From NCBI RefSeq assembly GCF_024223415.1, contig NZ_CP100507.1: a DNA stretch of 4,051 bases; one strand, 5' to 3'. The notes beneath the pieces are model-generated. The model saw nothing but the letters and a program-made list of their open reading frames with translations, searched no databases and was not told the DNA's origin. Source of the DNA: Escherichia coli. GTDB lineage: Bacteria; Pseudomonadota; Gammaproteobacteria; Enterobacterales; Enterobacteriaceae. The translations under genes were made by a program, and so were the position numbers. Within the stretch, counting starts at the first letter, position 1; each line of letters starts with the position of its first letter. Shown here piece by piece: positions 1-4,051 of this stretch.

Positions 1-887
1 GGGCGTTAAGTGGTCGCGATTATATATCTAATGCCGCTGTTCATACTAGGAAAAGAACAGTTATATGTCTTGATATCACCAATTTTTATCCCAGCATTAG
101 TAAAAAAGATGTTTGTTCTATTTTTAAAAATTTAATGCGTTTTTCTCCTGATGTTTCTTTATGCTTAACGGAACTTGTGACGTTGAATAATAAGGTCCCT
201 CAGGGTGGGTGCTGTTCTAGTTATATTGCAAATCTTTTATTTTTTAATAGTGAGTATAATCTCTATAATAGATTGAAGTCTATGGGGCTTTCATATTCAA
301 GGCTTTTAGATGATATTACTATATCTTCTGATAAGGATCTTTCATCAGAGGAAAAAACAAAAGTAATAAAACTCGTTCACGGAATGGTGAATCAGTACAG
401 ACTTTCAATAAATGAAAGTAAGACAACGATAGAGCACTCAAAAGATTCGTCTTCTAAACTTAGTGTCACTGGGTTGTGGGTAAAGCATGGTGTTCCTAAG
501 TTAACAAAAGAAAATAGACGTTATATCAGGTACTTAGTTTATATATGTAAAAAACAAGGTGCTTATGAACGTCATACGAAAGAGTACCATGATTTATGGA
601 ATAGATGCTCTGGCAAGGTTGCTCAAATGTCGAGGCTTGGGCATGTCCAGGCGGTTGAATTGAGGGCGATTCTTTCTGAGATAATGCCAGTTTATGATGA
701 TTACAAGATATCTAAATTAAAGTTGATGGCTAAGCACTATCTAAATAAGTTTACGCCGCCTTTAACTGATGATCAGATTAGGAAAATAGATAGGATGCTC
801 TATGATTTTGATATAGTAGGGCGGACTAATAAGAATCTTGCAAAACTATATAGACGTAAGCTCGTGGCATTACTTCCAGATAGGTGA
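1..887 (+). CDS. Retron-type reverse transcriptase, C-terminal 294 codons plus stop (5' part at 3799..4051; the two join in frame if the molecule is circular, giving about 379 aa)
   Basis: The frame of the 135..887 ORF has no stop back to base 3. Translation from base 3: ALSGRDYISNAAVHTRKRTVICLDITNFYPSISKKDV... Contains NAAVH (NAxxH, nt 30-44), LDITNFYPSI (RT motif 1/2, nt 69-98), VPQGG (nt 195-209), an xxDD box reading LLDD (nt 303-314) and SVTGL with the retron-associated VTG triplet (nt 465-473). Stop TGA at 885-887. Confidence 0.9.
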   Translation, partial: ALSGRDYISNAAVHTRKRTVICLDITNFYPSISKKDVCSIFKNLMRFSPDVSLCLTELVTLNNKVPQGGCCSSYIANLLFFNSEYNLYNRLKSMGLSYSRLLDDITISSDKDLSSEEKTKVIKLVHGMVNQYRLSINESKTTIEHSKDSSSKLSVTGLWVKHGVPKLTKENRRYIRYLVYICKKQGAYERHTKEYHDLWNRCSGKVAQMSRLGHVQAVELRAILSEIMPVYDDYKISKLKLMAKHYLNKFTPPLTDDQIRKIDRMLYDFDIVGRTNKNLAKLYRRKLVALLPDR

Positions 888-891
888 TTAT

Positions 892-1095
892 ATGGAAAAT
901 GGATTTGTTAATTTTTATGACCATGTTAAAGGGTATGGCTTTATAAGGCGTGAGCGTGGACGTGATGTTTTCTTTCGGTATGATGATTTTTTGTTTTTAG
1001 GGCATGATGTCGATATATGTAAAGGTATTTTAGTTAGGTTTAAATTAGAAAAAACAGATAAAGGGTTTAAAGCTGTAGCGATTCAAAAGGTATAA
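892..1095 (+). CDS. Cold-shock-domain (CspA-like OB-fold) protein, 67 aa; probable retron accessory/effector protein
   Basis: ATG at 892, 4 nt after the RT stop, preceded by AGGTGA (882-887) as Shine-Dalgarno. Translation MENGFVNFYDHVKGYGFIRRERGRDVFFRYDDFLFLGHDVDICKGILVRFKLEKTDKGFKAVAIQKV carries the two cold-shock RNP motifs (KGYGFI like KGFGFI; VFFRY like VFVHF). The track ORF begins at a TTG at 838 overlapping the RT; the ATG at 892 with its SD is preferred. Confidence 0.85.
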   Translation: MENGFVNFYDHVKGYGFIRRERGRDVFFRYDDFLFLGHDVDICKGILVRFKLEKTDKGFKAVAIQKV

Positions 1096-1163: not shown

Positions 1164-1176
1164 CTTGCTGTGTAAA

Positions 1177-1201
1177 CGAAAAAACCGCCTTGCAGGGCGG
1201 T
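1177..1201 (-). terminator. RNA I rho-independent terminator (stem 1184-1189/1196-1201, loop ttgcag, T-run on the minus strand over 1177-1183)
   Basis: accgcc / ggcggt 6-bp GC-rich stem flanked by an A-run on plus (U-run in RNA I); equivalent to the pBR322 RNA I terminator hairpin. Confidence 0.6.
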
Positions 1202-1278
1202 TTTTCGAAGGTTCTCAGAGCTACCAACTCTTTGAGCCGAGGTAACTGGCTTGGAGGAGCGCAGTCACCAAAACTTGT
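1178..1278 (-). ncRNA. RNA I antisense copy-number control RNA (about 100 nt)
   Basis: Minus-strand start near 1278 (ACAAGTTTTGG, compare pBR322 ACAGTATTTGG) and end at the hairpin plus T-run at 1177-1201; fully complementary to the 5' end of RNA II as in ColE1. Confidence 0.7.
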
Positions 1279-1932: not shown

Positions 1933-2127
1933 TTATATCCCGGTGCGATTTTCCGCTTCAAAGCGTGTCTGTATGCTGTTCTGAAGTTCTTCCGCGAGTT
2001 CGTGCAGCTTCTCACACATGGCGGCCTGTTCGTCAGCATCAAGTGCGTCCAGTTTTTCGAGCAGCGTCAGGCTCTGGCTTTTTATGAATCCTGCCATGTT
2101 GAGTACGGTTTGCTGCTGCTTGTTCAT
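1933..2127 (-). CDS. rop: Rop/Rom (RNA one modulator) copy-number control protein, 64 aa
   Basis: Translation MNKQQQTVLNMAGFIKSQSLTLLEKLDALDADEQAAMCEKLHELAEELQNSIQTRFEAENRTGI resembles ColE1/pBR322 Rop (MTKQEKTALNMARFIRSQTLTLLEKLNELDADEQADICESLHDHADELYRSCLARFGDDGENL, from memory). ATG at 2127-2125, stop TAA at 1935-1933, GGAG about 11 nt upstream, convergent with RNA II as in ColE1. The C-terminal third is divergent. Confidence 0.9.
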   Translation of the reverse strand: MNKQQQTVLNMAGFIKSQSLTLLEKLDALDADEQAAMCEKLHELAEELQNSIQTRFEAENRTGI

Positions 2128-2958: not shown

Positions 2959-3225
2959 TTGGTTAAATTACTATTGGTGAGAAATGAATATTTCAATAAA
3001 AACAATGACTTAAAAACCGTTGCTCGGTTTGACGGTAAAACCTTAAGAGATGCCTTTTCGAGAAAAATAGCGACTTTTGATGGCAAGGTTTTAAGGGATG
3101 CCTCTTTAAAAAAAGTAGCAACCTTTGACGGTCAGAATTTAAGAGATGCTAGTTCAAAAATTATCCTGAGTGCCGATGCTGAGGTTGGGATTGTTGTTAT
3201 GGCCTTTGTAGCTGAGTTGATTTGA
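2959..3225 (+). CDS. Hypothetical small protein with three tandem 16-aa repeats and a hydrophobic C-terminus; non-ATG start (TTG 2959, or TTG 2974 / GTG 2977)
   Basis: Translation ...TVARFDGKTLRDAFSRK IATFDGKVLRDASLKK VATFDGQNLRDASSKI ILSADAEVGIVVMAFVAELI. Differences between repeat copies fall largely on synonymous third positions (Ala gct/gcg/gca; Asp gac/gat; Gly ggt/ggc; Arg aga/agg; Lys aaa/aag; Thr act/acc), a coding-type pattern. No in-frame ATG and no clear SD; in-frame stop at 2950-2952 limits the 5' end. Confidence 0.5.
   Translation: MVKLLLVRNEYFNKNNDLKTVARFDGKTLRDAFSRKIATFDGKVLRDASLKKVATFDGQNLRDASSKIILSADAEVGIVVMAFVAELI
3019..3162 (+). repeat. Tandem direct repeat, 3 x 48 bp (units 3019-3066, 3067-3114, 3115-3162)
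   Basis: Conserved cores tttgacggtaaaaccttaagagatgcc / tttgatggcaaggttttaagggatgcc / tttgacggtcagaatttaagagatgct at exact 48-bp spacing. Confidence 0.85.
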
Positions 3226-3282: not shown

Positions 3283-3310
3283 GTGACAGAAAGATAAAAA
3301 ACTTTATAAT
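3283..3310 (+). promoter_or_regulatory. Sigma70-like promoter facing the retron: -35 GTGACA (3283-3288), 16-bp spacer, -10 TATAAT (3305-3310)
   Basis: Perfect -10 consensus and 5/6 -35 at canonical spacing; predicted start about 3317. Lies about 190 nt upstream of a1, so it may drive the retron ncRNA-RT-csp transcript, but no nearer promoter could be identified by eye. Confidence 0.4.
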
Positions 3311-3507
3311 AATCAGCGAAGCGGGCGAACCACGCCTGGCTCTCGCTCTTTAACAAATGGTTACGTGTATGTTGCGCAAGGAAACCGATGCCTTGTTTTT
3401 AAGGCGATCTCGCATGAGATCATGACCGGCCTGGCCGCTAATTAATGGTGAGAACGCCCCTGAGCGTGTATCAGCACTAAAAGAATAGCGACGATTGTCT
3501 GGCAATG

Positions 3508-3520
3508 TGAGTTAAAAGTC
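3508..3520. repeat. Retron a1 inverted repeat (left arm)
   Basis: 13-bp perfect inverted repeat partner of 3780-3792; does not extend on either side. Confidence 0.6.
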
Positions 3521-3594
3521 CCAAAGAGCCAATAGAGTTTTTCCTTGCTTTCCTACTGGTCTGGCAAAATTTCATAACCAATAGGAGTTGCATC

Positions 3595-3777
3595 ATGTTT
3601 ATTATCAACATCAACATTAACGTAACCAAGAGCTCTTCATCTTGTTCTGGAGACGGTCAGATGAAGAAAAAAAGAGAGGTTGGCTCTCTGGAGGCACTGA
3701 AAAAAACACAGTTTTTGTTTTCTATGTGCTTGATTATGTTTAAAGTAATAGATTACGTATCGAAACTTTTTAACTAA
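3595..3777 (+). CDS. Hypothetical 60-aa ORF lying entirely inside the a1-a2 (msr-msd) region; possibly not translated
   Basis: ATG at 3595 preceded by AGGAG (3583-3587) at 7-nt spacing; stop TAA at 3775-3777. Protein MFIINININV... is low-complexity and Lys-rich. Position inside the putative retron ncRNA argues that it may be fortuitous. Confidence 0.2.
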   Translation: MFIINININVTKSSSSCSGDGQMKKKREVGSLEALKKTQFLFSMCLIMFKVIDYVSKLFN

Positions 3778-3779
3778 TC

Positions 3780-3792
3780 GACTTTTAACTCA
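3780..3792. repeat. Retron a2 inverted repeat (right arm), 6 nt upstream of the RT ATG
   Basis: Exact reverse complement of 3508-3520. Flanked by a near-direct repeat actttttaact (3765-3775) / acttttaact (3781-3790). Confidence 0.6.
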
Positions 3793-3798
3793 AACATC

Positions 3799-4051
3799 AT
3801 GAATAAACCCAGGTTTAATGGAACTCCTGTTGCATCTTTGGATTCTTTATCTGCGATGTTAGGCATAGAAAGAAAAAGATTGGACTGGATAGTCAAGTCT
3901 GTATCGATGTCGTACAAGCAGTTTAAGGTTGAAACAGGGAAGAATAAAAAAGAAAGGCAAATTTTTGAACCCAAGAGATCTTTGAAAGGAATTCAAAAAA
4001 AAATAAATAAAGAGATTTTTGAGAAAATTGATTACCCTCATTATTTGCATG
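3799..4051 (+). CDS. Retron-type reverse transcriptase, N-terminal 84 codons (continues past the window end; see 1..887)
   Basis: ATG at 3799, open to the last base of the window. Translation MNKPRFNGTPVASLDSLSAMLGIERKRLDWIVKSVSMSYKQFKVETGKNKKERQIFEPKRSLKGIQKKINKEIFEKIDYPHYLH is colinear with the N-terminal region of retron RTs (RQIFEPKRSLKGIQ resembles the Ec86-type IYQPSRELKALQG segment as I recall it). No Shine-Dalgarno is evident, so the start is the first in-frame ATG after a2. Confidence 0.85.
   Translation, partial: MNKPRFNGTPVASLDSLSAMLGIERKRLDWIVKSVSMSYKQFKVETGKNKKERQIFEPKRSLKGIQKKINKEIFEKIDYPHYLH

Follow-up and report, generated by a model that had tools for sequence, protein, structure and literature searches.

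The window, the whole 4,051-bp stretch of DNA analysed here, is a complete circular ColE1-type plasmid from E. coli. It carries the gene for a retron reverse transcriptase (RT) whose open reading frame, join(3799..4051, 1..887), spans the junction of the circle and comprises 1140 nt for 379 aa, followed by the gene for a cold-shock-domain (CSD) protein:

3799-4051, plus strand: retron RT ORF, N-terminal part, aa 1-84 and the first base of codon 85
1-887, plus strand: retron RT ORF, C-terminal part, from the remainder of codon 85 to the stop codon at 885-887
892-1095, plus strand: CSD protein of 67 aa (PADLOC CSD_V, 3.4e-25), named Type V/Se72 effector

On plasmid NZ_CP066843.1, which is identical in sequence, the RT is annotated as a single CDS, and the annotation of the window-identical E. 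coli plasmids names an RT together with a 'retron Se72 family effector'. PADLOC assigned the RT to RT_V (2.6e-127, 423 bits, versus 242 bits for RT_VI and 219 bits for RT_IV), and the CSD gene scored 85.2 bits against the NCBIfam equivalog NF038236 (retron_eff_Se72, cut-off 82). Type V is the CSD type, represented by Retron-Sen1 (Se72) (PMC7736814), with a small CSD protein of 67-86 aa encoded beside the RT, and a CSD gene resides directly 3' of the RT gene in almost all Type V loci (about 40 loci with the same arrangement). The pattern used for scanning contigs contained LLDD itself, and the loci retrieved with it served for the analysis of architecture only, never for motif frequency. We conclude that the system is a Type V retron of the Retron-Sen1/Se72 family, consisting of the RT, the downstream CSD effector and an upstream structured RNA. 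Membership in Type IV (Ec48) was rejected, as the effector is a CSD and not a two-transmembrane protein and the RT_IV score lies below that for RT_V. An 88-aa tandem-repeat ORF was also dismissed as a retron component; no family matches it, and the other Type V loci lack it. Neither a Type IV nor a Type V structure was among the matches of our PDB searches (phmmer, Foldseek), and the experimental retron census preprint holds no text on Type V.

The RT carries the motifs expected for its class, and these are listed together with the unusual motif C box:

30-44, plus strand: retron-specific NAXXH (N95-A-A-V-H99); both end residues, N95 and H99, invariant in the 39 Type V RTs
60-95, plus strand: RT motif A (VICLDITNFYPS), aligned with IDLEDFFPS of the Ec86 RT
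195-236, plus strand: RT motif B (VPQGGCCSSYIANL); Q152-G153 invariant
288-329, plus strand: RT motif C beta-hairpin (LSYSRLLDDITISS), model strands E181-186 and E189-194, overlying the YADD hairpin of Ec86
303-314, plus strand: LLDD tetrad (L186 L187 D188 D189), from ORF translation, alignment with Ec86 and conservation in homologs
465-479, plus strand: VTG, extended to VTGLW; T241 and G242 invariant, W244 in 35/39

Pfam RVT_1 covers aa 49-242 (2.8e-15), and the palm and fingers so defined hold the Asp triad of a retron RT. Motif A provides the catalytic D109 (72-74) and the aromatic pair F113/Y114 (84-89), with D109 and F113 invariant. In the 39 Type V RTs, D109, Q152, G153, D188, D189, K225, T241 and G242 are all invariant, as is the VTG triplet (aa 240-242) in the family, so that both motifs defined for retron RTs, NAXXH and VTG (PMC7736814), are present. 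The identification as a retron RT put forward in the earlier note is borne out by phmmer searches against the PDB, which match retron RTs, and by Foldseek, where the top matches are all retron RTs (Ec86, 7v9u, target TM 0.78) and a telomerase appears first at rank 47.

The same note had drawn attention to a stretch S-Y-S-R-L-L-D-D-I-T at the place of motif C, with its aspartates at 309-314. This stretch is indeed present as aa 182-191 of the ORF, and bases 300-317 (AGGCTTTTAGATGATATT) encode R-L-L-D-D-I. In phmmer alignments against the PDB, GLSYSRLLDDITIS pairs with GLIYTRYADDLTLS of the Ec86 RT and with IIYTRYADDLTFS of the Retron-Kva2 RT, and comparison with the YADD of Ec86 reveals that both catalytic aspartates are retained and that the aromatic residue is replaced by leucine. 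An AlphaFold2 model (mean pLDDT 94.4) places L186-L187-D188-D189 at the tip of a hairpin formed by strands 181-186 and 189-194. The protein contains two further DD dipeptides (aa 317-318 and 341-342), and in principle the true motif C might be VYDD (aa 315-318) or LTDD (aa 339-342), which would make LLDD a chance look-alike. We give this practically no credence: residue 318 is Glu in 16/39 sequences, positions 341 and 342 vary, with a D342E exchange in the Salmonella plasmid described below, both sites lie in the alpha-helical C-terminal extension outside the palm of the model, and it is LLDD, not the other DD pairs, that aligns on the YADD of two solved retron RTs. A motif C elsewhere, which the earlier note had named as grounds for withdrawing its claim, is excluded by alignment, conservation and model.

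Its second ground, a sequencing error at 303-308, is likewise excluded. That the tetrad is an artefact of sequencing or assembly, or the mark of a decaying pseudogene, has next to no probability, since the sequence recurs in independent plasmid records, three with 100% and 13 with at least 99% identity, and the cluster comprises 440 member sequences. The RT gene shows a strong third-position bias and a pN/pS of 0.15. Among 121 homologs with identities down to 37%, motif C reads LLDD in 119 and LIDD in two, and all six leucine codons occur at position 186 across 56 loci. Salmonella plasmid CP066323.1 is 98.4% identical over the whole window, and its RT shares 377 of 379 residues with the window RT.

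An alignment of retron RTs, which the earlier note had proposed as a check on clade specificity, and a tree gave a positive answer: LLDD is confined to a clade. L-[L/I/V]-DD is invariant across the Type V family. Leucine at the tyrosine position arose about 11 times on the tree, and the window RT lies inside a single Type V clade of 25 representatives that is purely Leu. All five representatives classified as RT_IV have Leu first (LVDD, LIDD or LTDD). The second leucine, at position X, is specific for Type V, with V, I or T in Type IV, and neighbouring retron RTs usually carry a bulky V or I at X. The claim that LLDD departs from the usual box stands, but the usual motif of the nearest relatives is Y/F-[V/I]-DD and not the YADD that the earlier note had assumed. 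The canonical aromatic-first YXDD of retron RTs (usually YADD) is replaced by LLDD here, and published work already regards the box as variable, naming an 'XXDD tetrad', YCDD in Ec107 and LVDD (sources including PMC6868368). PMC8989520 cites, for Eco6/Ec48, a 1996 paper by Mao, Inouye & Inouye with 'LVDD in the YXDD box' in its title. YXDD is a typical but not a strictly defining feature of retron RTs. A literature search combining LLDD with reverse transcriptase returned only papers on the lactate dehydrogenase LldD. LLDD is a known lineage trait of a described RT, neither an error nor a new type of enzyme, and the finding as such is already known.

Taken together, we consider it highly probable, judging from alignments, conservation and model, that LLDD constitutes the true motif C of this Type V retron RT and represents a tolerated, lineage-fixed remodelling of the pocket that leaves the chemistry unchanged. 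D188 and D189 together with D109 of motif A supply the three carboxylates customary in two-metal nucleotidyl transfer, and the remaining catalytic parts (Q152-G153, K225, F113/Y114, NAXXH and VTG) are intact. Because the catalytic apparatus is intact, the enzyme should be active as a polymerase and copy a portion of the structured RNA encoded upstream. What would differ is the floor beneath the primer terminus, with an aliphatic Leu for Tyr and a bulky Leu at X. In YXDD enzymes, the tyrosine stacks on and hydrogen-bonds to the primer strand, and roles have been described for both Y and X (PMC1851649, PMC12337344). The resulting box is of the 'hhDD' kind, as in telomerase, where leucine has a precedent (PMC1851649). 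Co-varying residues, W244 of VTGLW among them, probably accommodate the remodelled primer-terminus pocket, which would suit the synthesis of short DNA on a highly structured template; an effect on primer grip and processivity may follow. The earlier note had supposed that dNTP selection or processivity could be altered; the aromatic pair F113/Y114 of motif A and the other catalytic residues are unchanged. W244 does co-vary with Leu186, the same position being mostly N in the Y/F group, but shared ancestry alone may explain the co-varying positions. The reverse change in human telomerase, L866Y, had little effect (PMC1851649), so leucine may have almost no functional meaning.

The earlier note had also suggested a relation to an atypical msDNA product, and as an association at the family level this is correct: a review reports for Se72 an unbranched, double-stranded DNA (PMC6868368). 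This 72-nt product is described as having no detectable 2'-5' branch and as made by self-priming from a 3'-OH. It is a different matter whether Leu-Leu causes this product, or is an adaptation needed for it, by changing how the primer is handled, how processive the enzyme is or how strands anneal. In favour, the retron family with the atypical product is precisely the one marked by LLDD, and the second leucine of the box is found only there and not in Type IV. With a bulky Ile at X, the group II intron-like G2L4 RT prefers strand annealing and snap-back synthesis over primer extension (PMC12337344), and a Leu-to-Tyr exchange changed processivity in the telomerases of Tetrahymena and yeast (PMC1851649). 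Nevertheless, we regard causation as unlikely. It is weakened because the sampled Type IV-like RTs all share Leu at the tyrosine position, because Ec48, with LVDD, is reported to yield msDNA close to the expected 48 nt (PMC8989520), and because leucine originated repeatedly on the tree. The frequency of V or I at X in neighbouring retron RTs and the mild outcome of the hTERT exchange also speak against it.

A tolerated change in an active enzyme, as favoured above, must further be weighed against loss of polymerase activity, by which the RT would now be an RNA-binding scaffold and LLDD a relic. Sister retrons of Type VI neutralise their toxin without RT catalysis, and their msDNA is undetectable at baseline (10.1101/2025.10.22.683967). 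For the RT studied here such a loss is very improbable, given that the catalytic residues are all invariant under strong purifying selection and that RT-derived DNA has been reported for Se72/Sen1 (PMC6868368, 10.1101/2025.10.22.683967). Spacer-seq gave coverage of the Sen1 msd (10.1101/2025.10.22.683967), and for Se72, defence against phage lambda and sensing of Gam/RecBCD are reported (10.1101/2022.08.27.505566). Published data describe the Type V RT as active.

Upstream of the RT gene lies the region expected to provide the template, with the following elements:

3283-3310, plus strand: sigma-70 promoter-like site GTGACA-16 nt-TATAAT, 11/12 matches to the consensus, assigned by consensus only
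3322-3503, plus strand: conserved 5' half of the retron RNA, from alignments and a consensus fold, with hairpins showing compensatory changes
3497-3503, plus strand: GTCTGGC, invariant 7-mer, copy 1, from alignment across Type V loci
3559-3565, plus strand: GTCTGGC, invariant 7-mer, copy 2, from alignment across Type V loci
3508-3520, plus strand: inverted-repeat arm a1, a 13-nt perfect complement of 3780-3792
3780-3792, plus strand: inverted-repeat arm a2; 6 nt separate its end from the RT start codon
3521-3533, plus strand: helix P2, 5' strand, pairing with 3679-3691
3679-3691, plus strand: helix P2, 3' strand, pairing with 3521-3533
3583-3587, plus strand: Shine-Dalgarno (SD) sequence AGGAG, 7 nt before the ATG of the small ORF
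3595-3777, plus strand: small ORF of 60 codons (MFIINININV...FLFSMCLIMFKVIDYVSKLFN) inside the a1/a2-bounded RNA, with hydrophobic C-terminus

The promoter-like site is the probable start of the retron transcript; homology with a Klebsiella retron plasmid begins at about 3270, and TTGACA/TATAAT-like boxes are also visible upstream at other loci. The upstream RNA is conserved and covarying across Type V loci. Its 5' half contains the invariant blocks GCTCTTTAA (3346-3354), ATGACCGG (3421-3428) and GAC.GTTGTCTGGC (3490-3503), and the GC-rich variable segment at 3429-3487 is a possible msd. The supplements searched for the Sen1 msd give no sequence for it, and we infer its location in the window. 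GTCTGGC pairs with a spacing of 61-67 nt occur in 25/28 Type V loci; no such pair was found in 19 non-Type V retron loci, one of which has a single copy. The a1/a2 helix shows compensatory double changes at 10/11 pairs (25 loci), with a covariation of 0.572 versus 0.259 for shuffles (0/500) and 0.09-0.17 for slid partners, and in the long-range helix P2 compensatory changes are seen at 11/12 pairs. As in retrons in general, a structured RNA bounded by a1 and a2 is thus found just upstream of the RT. Too little covariation led us to discard a pairing between an upstream GCUCUU and the 3' half of a1. An Rfam scan of the whole window (E up to 1) gave the plasmid RNAI as the sole match above threshold and none to a retron RNA family.

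The small ORF attracts attention in its own right. An SD-like motif is present in 42/44 loci versus 12% in the background, the ATG is invariant in 25/25 aligned loci, the forward frame is open in 34/34 loci, and the encoded peptides are of similar design. Coding is supported by these three features, SD, ATG and open frame, as far as comparison of loci can tell. The dN/dS values are equivocal (0.3-1.1), and third-codon-position bias is absent, so constraint at the RNA level appears to dominate. At the level of sequence, the region displays the architecture of the hybrid RNA (hyRNA) of Type VI retrons, i.e., an SD and AUG-started ORF within an a1/a2-closed RNA and paired 7-nt repeats. A gene for an HTH protein between the small ORF and the RT gene does not occur in the window. 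By analogy with Type VI, it is conceivable, though we hold it only tentatively, that the RNA copied by the LLDD RT is a hybrid RNA of about 480 nt that encodes a small protein; it would combine a promoter-proximal msr/msd-like arm, the two GTCTGGC copies and the 60-codon ORF within the a1/a2 and P2 helices.

For practical purposes, L-[L/I/V]-DD is an invariant signature of Type V RTs, selected at the level of the amino acid, and is diagnostic for annotation. Caution is needed when catalytically dead controls are designed by searching for YADD. The box also offers a natural test case for the contribution of the motif C tyrosine in a prokaryotic RT; one setting would be retron editors, with LLDD swapped for YXDD. 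More interesting than the motif may be the upstream RNA, noticed in passing. If the hybrid RNA were real, Type V would have a fourth, overlooked component, the three-part picture of RT, ncRNA and CSD would be incomplete, and Type VI would no longer be the only retron type with the hybrid-RNA mechanism. The CSD protein might then be an RNA- or ssDNA-binding regulator and not the sole effector, or be more than an effector, and the primer pocket with LLDD and W244 could be an adaptation to a hybrid RNA template. A 2001 study of Se72 reportedly found an 'ORF of unknown function' to be needed for Se72 DNA synthesis, and the small ORF would in this case probably be identical with it.

Among known systems, the RTs of Ec86/Eco1 and Kva2 have the fold, NAXXH, VTG, the order of motifs and the Asp triad in common with the window RT. 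They differ in having Tyr-Ala instead of Leu-Leu, in lacking the helical C-terminal extension (about 110 aa) and in their effectors. In Type IV, Retron-Eco6 (Ec48) represents the sister RT lineage (clade 3), with an RT of about 385-400 aa and Leu at the tyrosine position; in contrast to Type V, residue X is V, I or T, the upstream GTCTGGC pair is absent, and the msDNA of Ec48, which is branched, has 48 nt. The effector of Type IV is a two-transmembrane protein, that of Type V a CSD protein (PMC7736814), and yet Ec48 and Se72 both guard RecBCD, with lambda Gam as the trigger (10.1101/2022.08.27.505566, 10.1101/2025.10.22.683967).

Telomerases likewise have Leu for the retroviral Tyr in motif C, which reads LVDD in hTERT, LTDD in ciliates and LADD in yeast (PMC1851649), and the template that they copy is also a short part of a structured RNA. 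Homology is however limited to the RT palm and fingers, and the likeness is one of analogy, not membership. An assignment to the telomerase RTs, which combine hhDD with TEN/TRBD domains and telomerase-specific motifs, was rejected, as only the hhDD-type box is common to both and the best fold matches are retron RTs.

The hyRNA of the Type VI Retron-Vpa2 encodes a small toxic protein (10.1101/2025.10.22.683967). Type VI further has an HTH accessory protein, and its msDNA relieves the repression of the toxic effector's translation. The upstream region of the window resembles this hyRNA as a structured RNA with a length of about 470-480 nt, in its place before the RT gene, in a1/a2-like repeats that enclose a small ORF equipped with SD and AUG, in a hydrophobic helix at the C-terminus of the peptide that the ORF would encode, and in two conserved 7-nt direct repeats. 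The gene order differs, as the CSD gene of Type V follows the RT gene and the HTH gene of Type VI precedes it, and unlike in Type VI, DNA of Se72 has been reported at baseline. Closest of all is Retron-Sen1 (Se72) on a small plasmid of Salmonella Enteritidis, practically the same system on a ColE1-type replicon of about 4.05 kb, with the difference that the records identical to the window plasmid come from E. coli hosts.

The open reading frame of the RT crosses the window's 3' end and resumes at base 1; join(3799..4051, 1..887) encodes 379 aa, in agreement with the record of an identical plasmid, where one CDS of 1140 nt is annotated. Translation places S-Y-S-R-L-L-D-D-I-T at aa 182-191, R-L-L-D-D-I at 300-317 and the two aspartates at 309-314, just as the earlier note had read them. 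Its assignment of LLDD (L186-L187-D188-D189) to RT motif C is borne out by alignment to RTs in the PDB, domain match, modelled hairpin and fold matches alike. When all PDB chains were searched with phmmer, GLSYSRLLDDITIS aligned on GLIYTRYADDLTLS of the Ec86 RT (E = 1.7e-22), and the LLDD segment also aligned on YADD of the Retron-Kva2 RT. Pfam RVT_1 spans aa 49-242. An AlphaFold2 model computed from 39 family members (mean pLDDT 94.4) predicts strands 181-186 and 189-194, with LLDD at the tip of a classic motif C hairpin. The top structural matches of the model were all retron RTs, namely Ec86 (7v9u; target TM 0.78, rmsd 3.8 Å), followed by Eco2, Eco7/Ec78, Ec83 and Eco8. Two further DD dipeptides, at aa 317-318 (VYDD) and aa 341-342 (LTDD), are unconserved (D342 is Glu in the RT of the Salmonella plasmid) and lie in a helical C-terminal extension; motif C is therefore not located elsewhere in the protein. 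This extension (aa 270-379, window 607-884) is all-helical, modelled with high confidence and reaches about 110 aa past the Ec86-aligned region.

Homolog conservation, codon variety and the purifying pattern of the RT gene rule out that LLDD arose by chance or, as the earlier note had considered, by a sequencing error at 303-308. Among 120 database homologs plus the query, with identities down to 37%, 119 proteins carry LLDD and two LIDD. All six leucine codons are used at position 186 in 56 loci (TTA 9, CTT 13, TTG 10, CTG 8, CTA 9, CTC 7), and thus selection acts on the amino acid. Comparison with the RT gene of an 81%-identical Klebsiella plasmid yielded 42/24/147 differences by codon position and a pN/pS of 0.15. 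Both catalytic aspartates are indeed kept; D188-D189 belong to an invariant catalytic set that further comprises D109, the aromatic pair F113/Y114, Q152-G153, K225 and T241-G242.

The window is a complete circular plasmid of 4,051 bases. Three E. coli plasmids (NZ_AP027712.1, NZ_AP027661.1 and NZ_CP066843.1) match it with 100% identity from end to end; identity to CP066323.1, a plasmid of Salmonella enterica, is 98.4%. The window has a backbone of the ColE1 type and the remainder is the retron. Backbone features are:

1176-1276, minus strand, RNAI (94.6 bits)
1933-2127, minus strand, rop
2411-2734, MobA, 107 aa (NF041264, 113 bits)

The 107-aa MobA is the only mobility protein encoded and a relaxase gene is lacking; in PLSDB the plasmid is nevertheless typed as mobilizable, and its relaxase as 'MOBF'. 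The mobA remnant is followed at 2899-2923 by CAGAATCGCGCT A AGCGCGATTCTG, a perfect 12-bp palindrome that might be part of an oriT or a terminator. An 88-aa ORF at 2959-3225 contains three tandem 48-nt (16-aa) repeats of the ARFDGKTLRDAFSRKI type (3028-3171) and has no match in PADLOC or NCBIfam. It is present only in copies of the same plasmid and absent beside other Type V retrons, and is therefore plasmid cargo.

PADLOC assigned the RT over its full length to RT_V (2.6e-127), with RT_VI and RT_IV scoring lower, and the 67-aa ORF at 892-1095 to CSD_V (3.4e-25). In NCBIfam the latter is an equivalog, 'retron Se72 family effector protein', with 85.2 bits against a curated cut-off of 82 bits. 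The retron-specific motifs NAXXH (NAAVH, aa 95-99) and VTG (aa 240-242) are present in the RT and both are invariant. The plasmid described by Rychlik et al. in 2001 reportedly measures 4,053 bp and its DNA 72 nt, and this DNA is said to have needed three ORFs: an unknown ORF, the RT and a cold-shock homologue. A Type V retron combines, by definition, an RT of clade 3 with a cold-shock-domain (CSD) protein, and Retron-Sen1 (Se72) is the described member (Mestre et al., PMC7736814). Se72 resides on a small Salmonella plasmid; a 2'-5' branch was not observed, and a review describes its product as double-stranded DNA, synthesised once the RNA has been removed and primed by a free 3'-OH (PMC6868368). 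Se72 protects against lambda and becomes toxic upon inhibition of RecBCD by Gam or deletion of recB (10.1101/2022.08.27.505566; confirmed in 10.1101/2025.10.22.683967). Some 100,000 species genomes were scanned with a search pattern that itself contained the LLDD motif; RTs scoring at least ~190 bits to the query were almost all of the L[L/I]DD type with a CSD gene immediately downstream; a single such locus, L039, had no detectable CSD gene. For one copy of the region, whose RT is 100% identical (CAUABB010000120.1), the metagenome bin carries the label 'uncultured Oscillospiraceae'; an enterobacterial plasmid was probably mis-binned here. On a contig assigned to Candidatus Saccharibacteria (LCPR01000036.1), an LIDD RT and a CSD gene make up a complete Type V retron, which points either to an unexpected host range or to contamination.

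To place the motif among retron RTs, 1.84 billion representatives were searched exhaustively and the 150 closest clusters were taken. Here, L-[L/I/V]-DD is found in all Type V-like proteins (~390 aa, at least ~215 bits). Counts for the remoter RTs among these clusters, mostly of ~315 aa, are:

YVDD, 45
YIDD, 26
FVDD, 19
FIDD, 6
FADD, 4

These counts show that YADD, taken as the usual form in the earlier note, is not the norm in the Type V neighbourhood of the retron tree, where YVDD, YIDD and FVDD dominate. Five proteins of ~382-399 aa with LVDD, LIDD or LTDD had RT_IV (Ec48 type) as best PADLOC match. Matches of these RT_IV-classified proteins to the RT_V profile cover nearly the full length of the profile, and so the proteins appear to share the ~110-aa C-terminal extension. 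In a crude neighbour-joining tree calculated without the motif columns, Type V formed one pure-Leu clade of 25 representatives, bearing out that LLDD is clade-specific, and the remaining Leu cases were scattered. Parsimony required 11 changes from an aromatic root; crude as it is, the tree shows that the first position of motif C toggles among Y, F and L. LLDD thus belongs to an already described retron and is ordinary for its family. The variant is already visible in the literature, where the box is labelled 'the catalytic XXDD tetrad' in an alignment with Sen1 and Ec48, and Ec107 has YCDD (Simon et al., PMC6868368).

The Type V enzyme makes DNA (PMC6868368; 10.1101/2025.10.22.683967), and LLDD would be a catalytically competent hhDD-type variant fixed in Type V. 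In other RTs, the Tyr of motif C intercalates at, or hydrogen-bonds to, the primer terminus, residue X makes packing contacts with the incoming dNTP or with the sugar at the primer end, and both affect dNTP binding, processivity and fidelity (PMC1851649; PMC12337344). The Leu may instead provide an aliphatic floor beneath the primer end. Telomerases naturally have hhDD as LVDD, LTDD or LADD; L866Y in the human enzyme had barely any effect, whereas the equivalent change shifts processivity in the ciliate and yeast enzymes (PMC1851649). The bulky Ile at X of G2L4 RT, for which a co-varying Gly makes room, favours annealing and snap-back synthesis over primer extension (PMC12337344). Positions tracking Leu-186 are F42, P58, L108, F126, W244, K251, H281 and H299. 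The clearest is W244 (window 477-479) of VTGLW; most relatives of the Y/F type have Asn there (VHGLN). Located in the primer-grip region, W244 may compensate for the lost aromatic residue; the co-variation may equally be a phylogenetic correlation.

It had been proposed that LLDD may relate to an atypical msDNA. The association stands at the family level through the Se72 product, but causation is unsupported, and we regard a causal role of the motif as improbable. The second Leu alone is Type V-specific and could therefore contribute. Leu occupies the first position in every Type IV-like RT sampled, and Ec48 yields an msDNA of approximately the expected 48 nt, which is reportedly branched. Moreover, bulky X residues are general among neighbouring RTs and Leu arose repeatedly on the tree. 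A simple causal link from LLDD to the atypical product is unlikely.

A more promising lead than LLDD is the organisation of the template RNA. The two arms of a perfect 13-nt inverted repeat lie at 3508-3520 and 3780-3792, the second of them stopping 6 nt short of the RT start codon, and folding of 3500-3800 gave z = -4.6. The consensus fold of 25 aligned Type V loci has 39 pairs, with 87.2% paired cells versus 70.4% in shuffles and a covariation score of 0.572 versus 0.259 in shuffles (reached by 0 of 500) and 0.09-0.17 with slid partners. Features of this RNA are:

3283-3310, near-consensus promoter, GTGACA-16 nt-TATAAT
3346-3354, invariant block GCTCTTTAA
3421-3428, invariant block ATGACCGG
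3509-3520 with 3780-3791, helix a1/a2
3521-3533 with 3679-3691, helix P2
3646-3649 with 3654-3657, small hairpin
3732-3738 with 3773-3779, helix P3
3595-3777, small ORF of 60 codons, inside the covarying a1/a2 and P2 helices

Conservation reaches ~190 nt upstream of a1 (3283-3507), with covarying hairpins, and since it continues to the promoter the RNA would measure ~480 nt. A GC-rich hypervariable segment at 3429-3487 could be the msd. RNAalifold also paired 3346-3351 with 3514-3519, which would compete with a1/a2, with weak covariation. An invariant pair of GTCTGGC heptamers (3497-3503 and 3559-3565), spaced 61-67 nt, occurs in 25 of 28 Type V loci; among 19 Type IV-like and other retron loci no pair was found and one locus had a single copy. 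Relative to the Klebsiella plasmid, the a1-a2 region has hardly changed over its 5' two-thirds and differences gather in 3692-3775, the region coding for the hydrophobic C-terminus of the small ORF. A hairpin in the stretch 3692-3731 shows apparent compensatory changes between the two plasmids (AAAAAAACACAGTTTTTGTTTT to AAAACCCCGCAGTTTTGGGGTT).

The small ORF has a Shine-Dalgarno sequence (AGGAG, from 3583) 7 nt ahead of an ATG that is invariant in 25/25 loci. A similar motif precedes an in-frame ATG opening an ORF of 59-85 codons in 42 of 44 loci, against a background of 12%. The forward frame is without stops for at least 63 of 81 codons in 34/34 loci (median shuffle P = 0.05), while the reverse strand attains 55 codons in only 18 of the 34. 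The peptides have a common alternating-hydrophobic N-terminus and, in most cases, a hydrophobic C-terminal segment. Synonymous sites are more conserved than those of the RT (pS 0.24 vs 0.58) and differences by codon position (10/7/10) reveal no third-position bias; RNA-level constraint therefore dominates, and coding and RNA constraints are seen, as far as sequence comparison tells, to overlap.

Extension of the hybrid-RNA idea to Type V was not found in the literature searched. In the sister Type VI, a hybrid RNA of ~470 nt is closed by a1/a2-like repeats and carries, beside an msr-msd arm, a second arm in which the AUG and the ribosome binding site of a small toxic protein are sequestered; the C-terminal helix of this protein is hydrophobic. 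The RNA also contains 7-nt direct repeats as a conserved pair (10.1101/2025.10.22.683967). The architecture predicted from sequence for the ~480-nt Type V RNA closely parallels this organisation, with a 7-nt pair of its own (GTCTGGC) and a small ORF that resembles the Type VI toxic protein.
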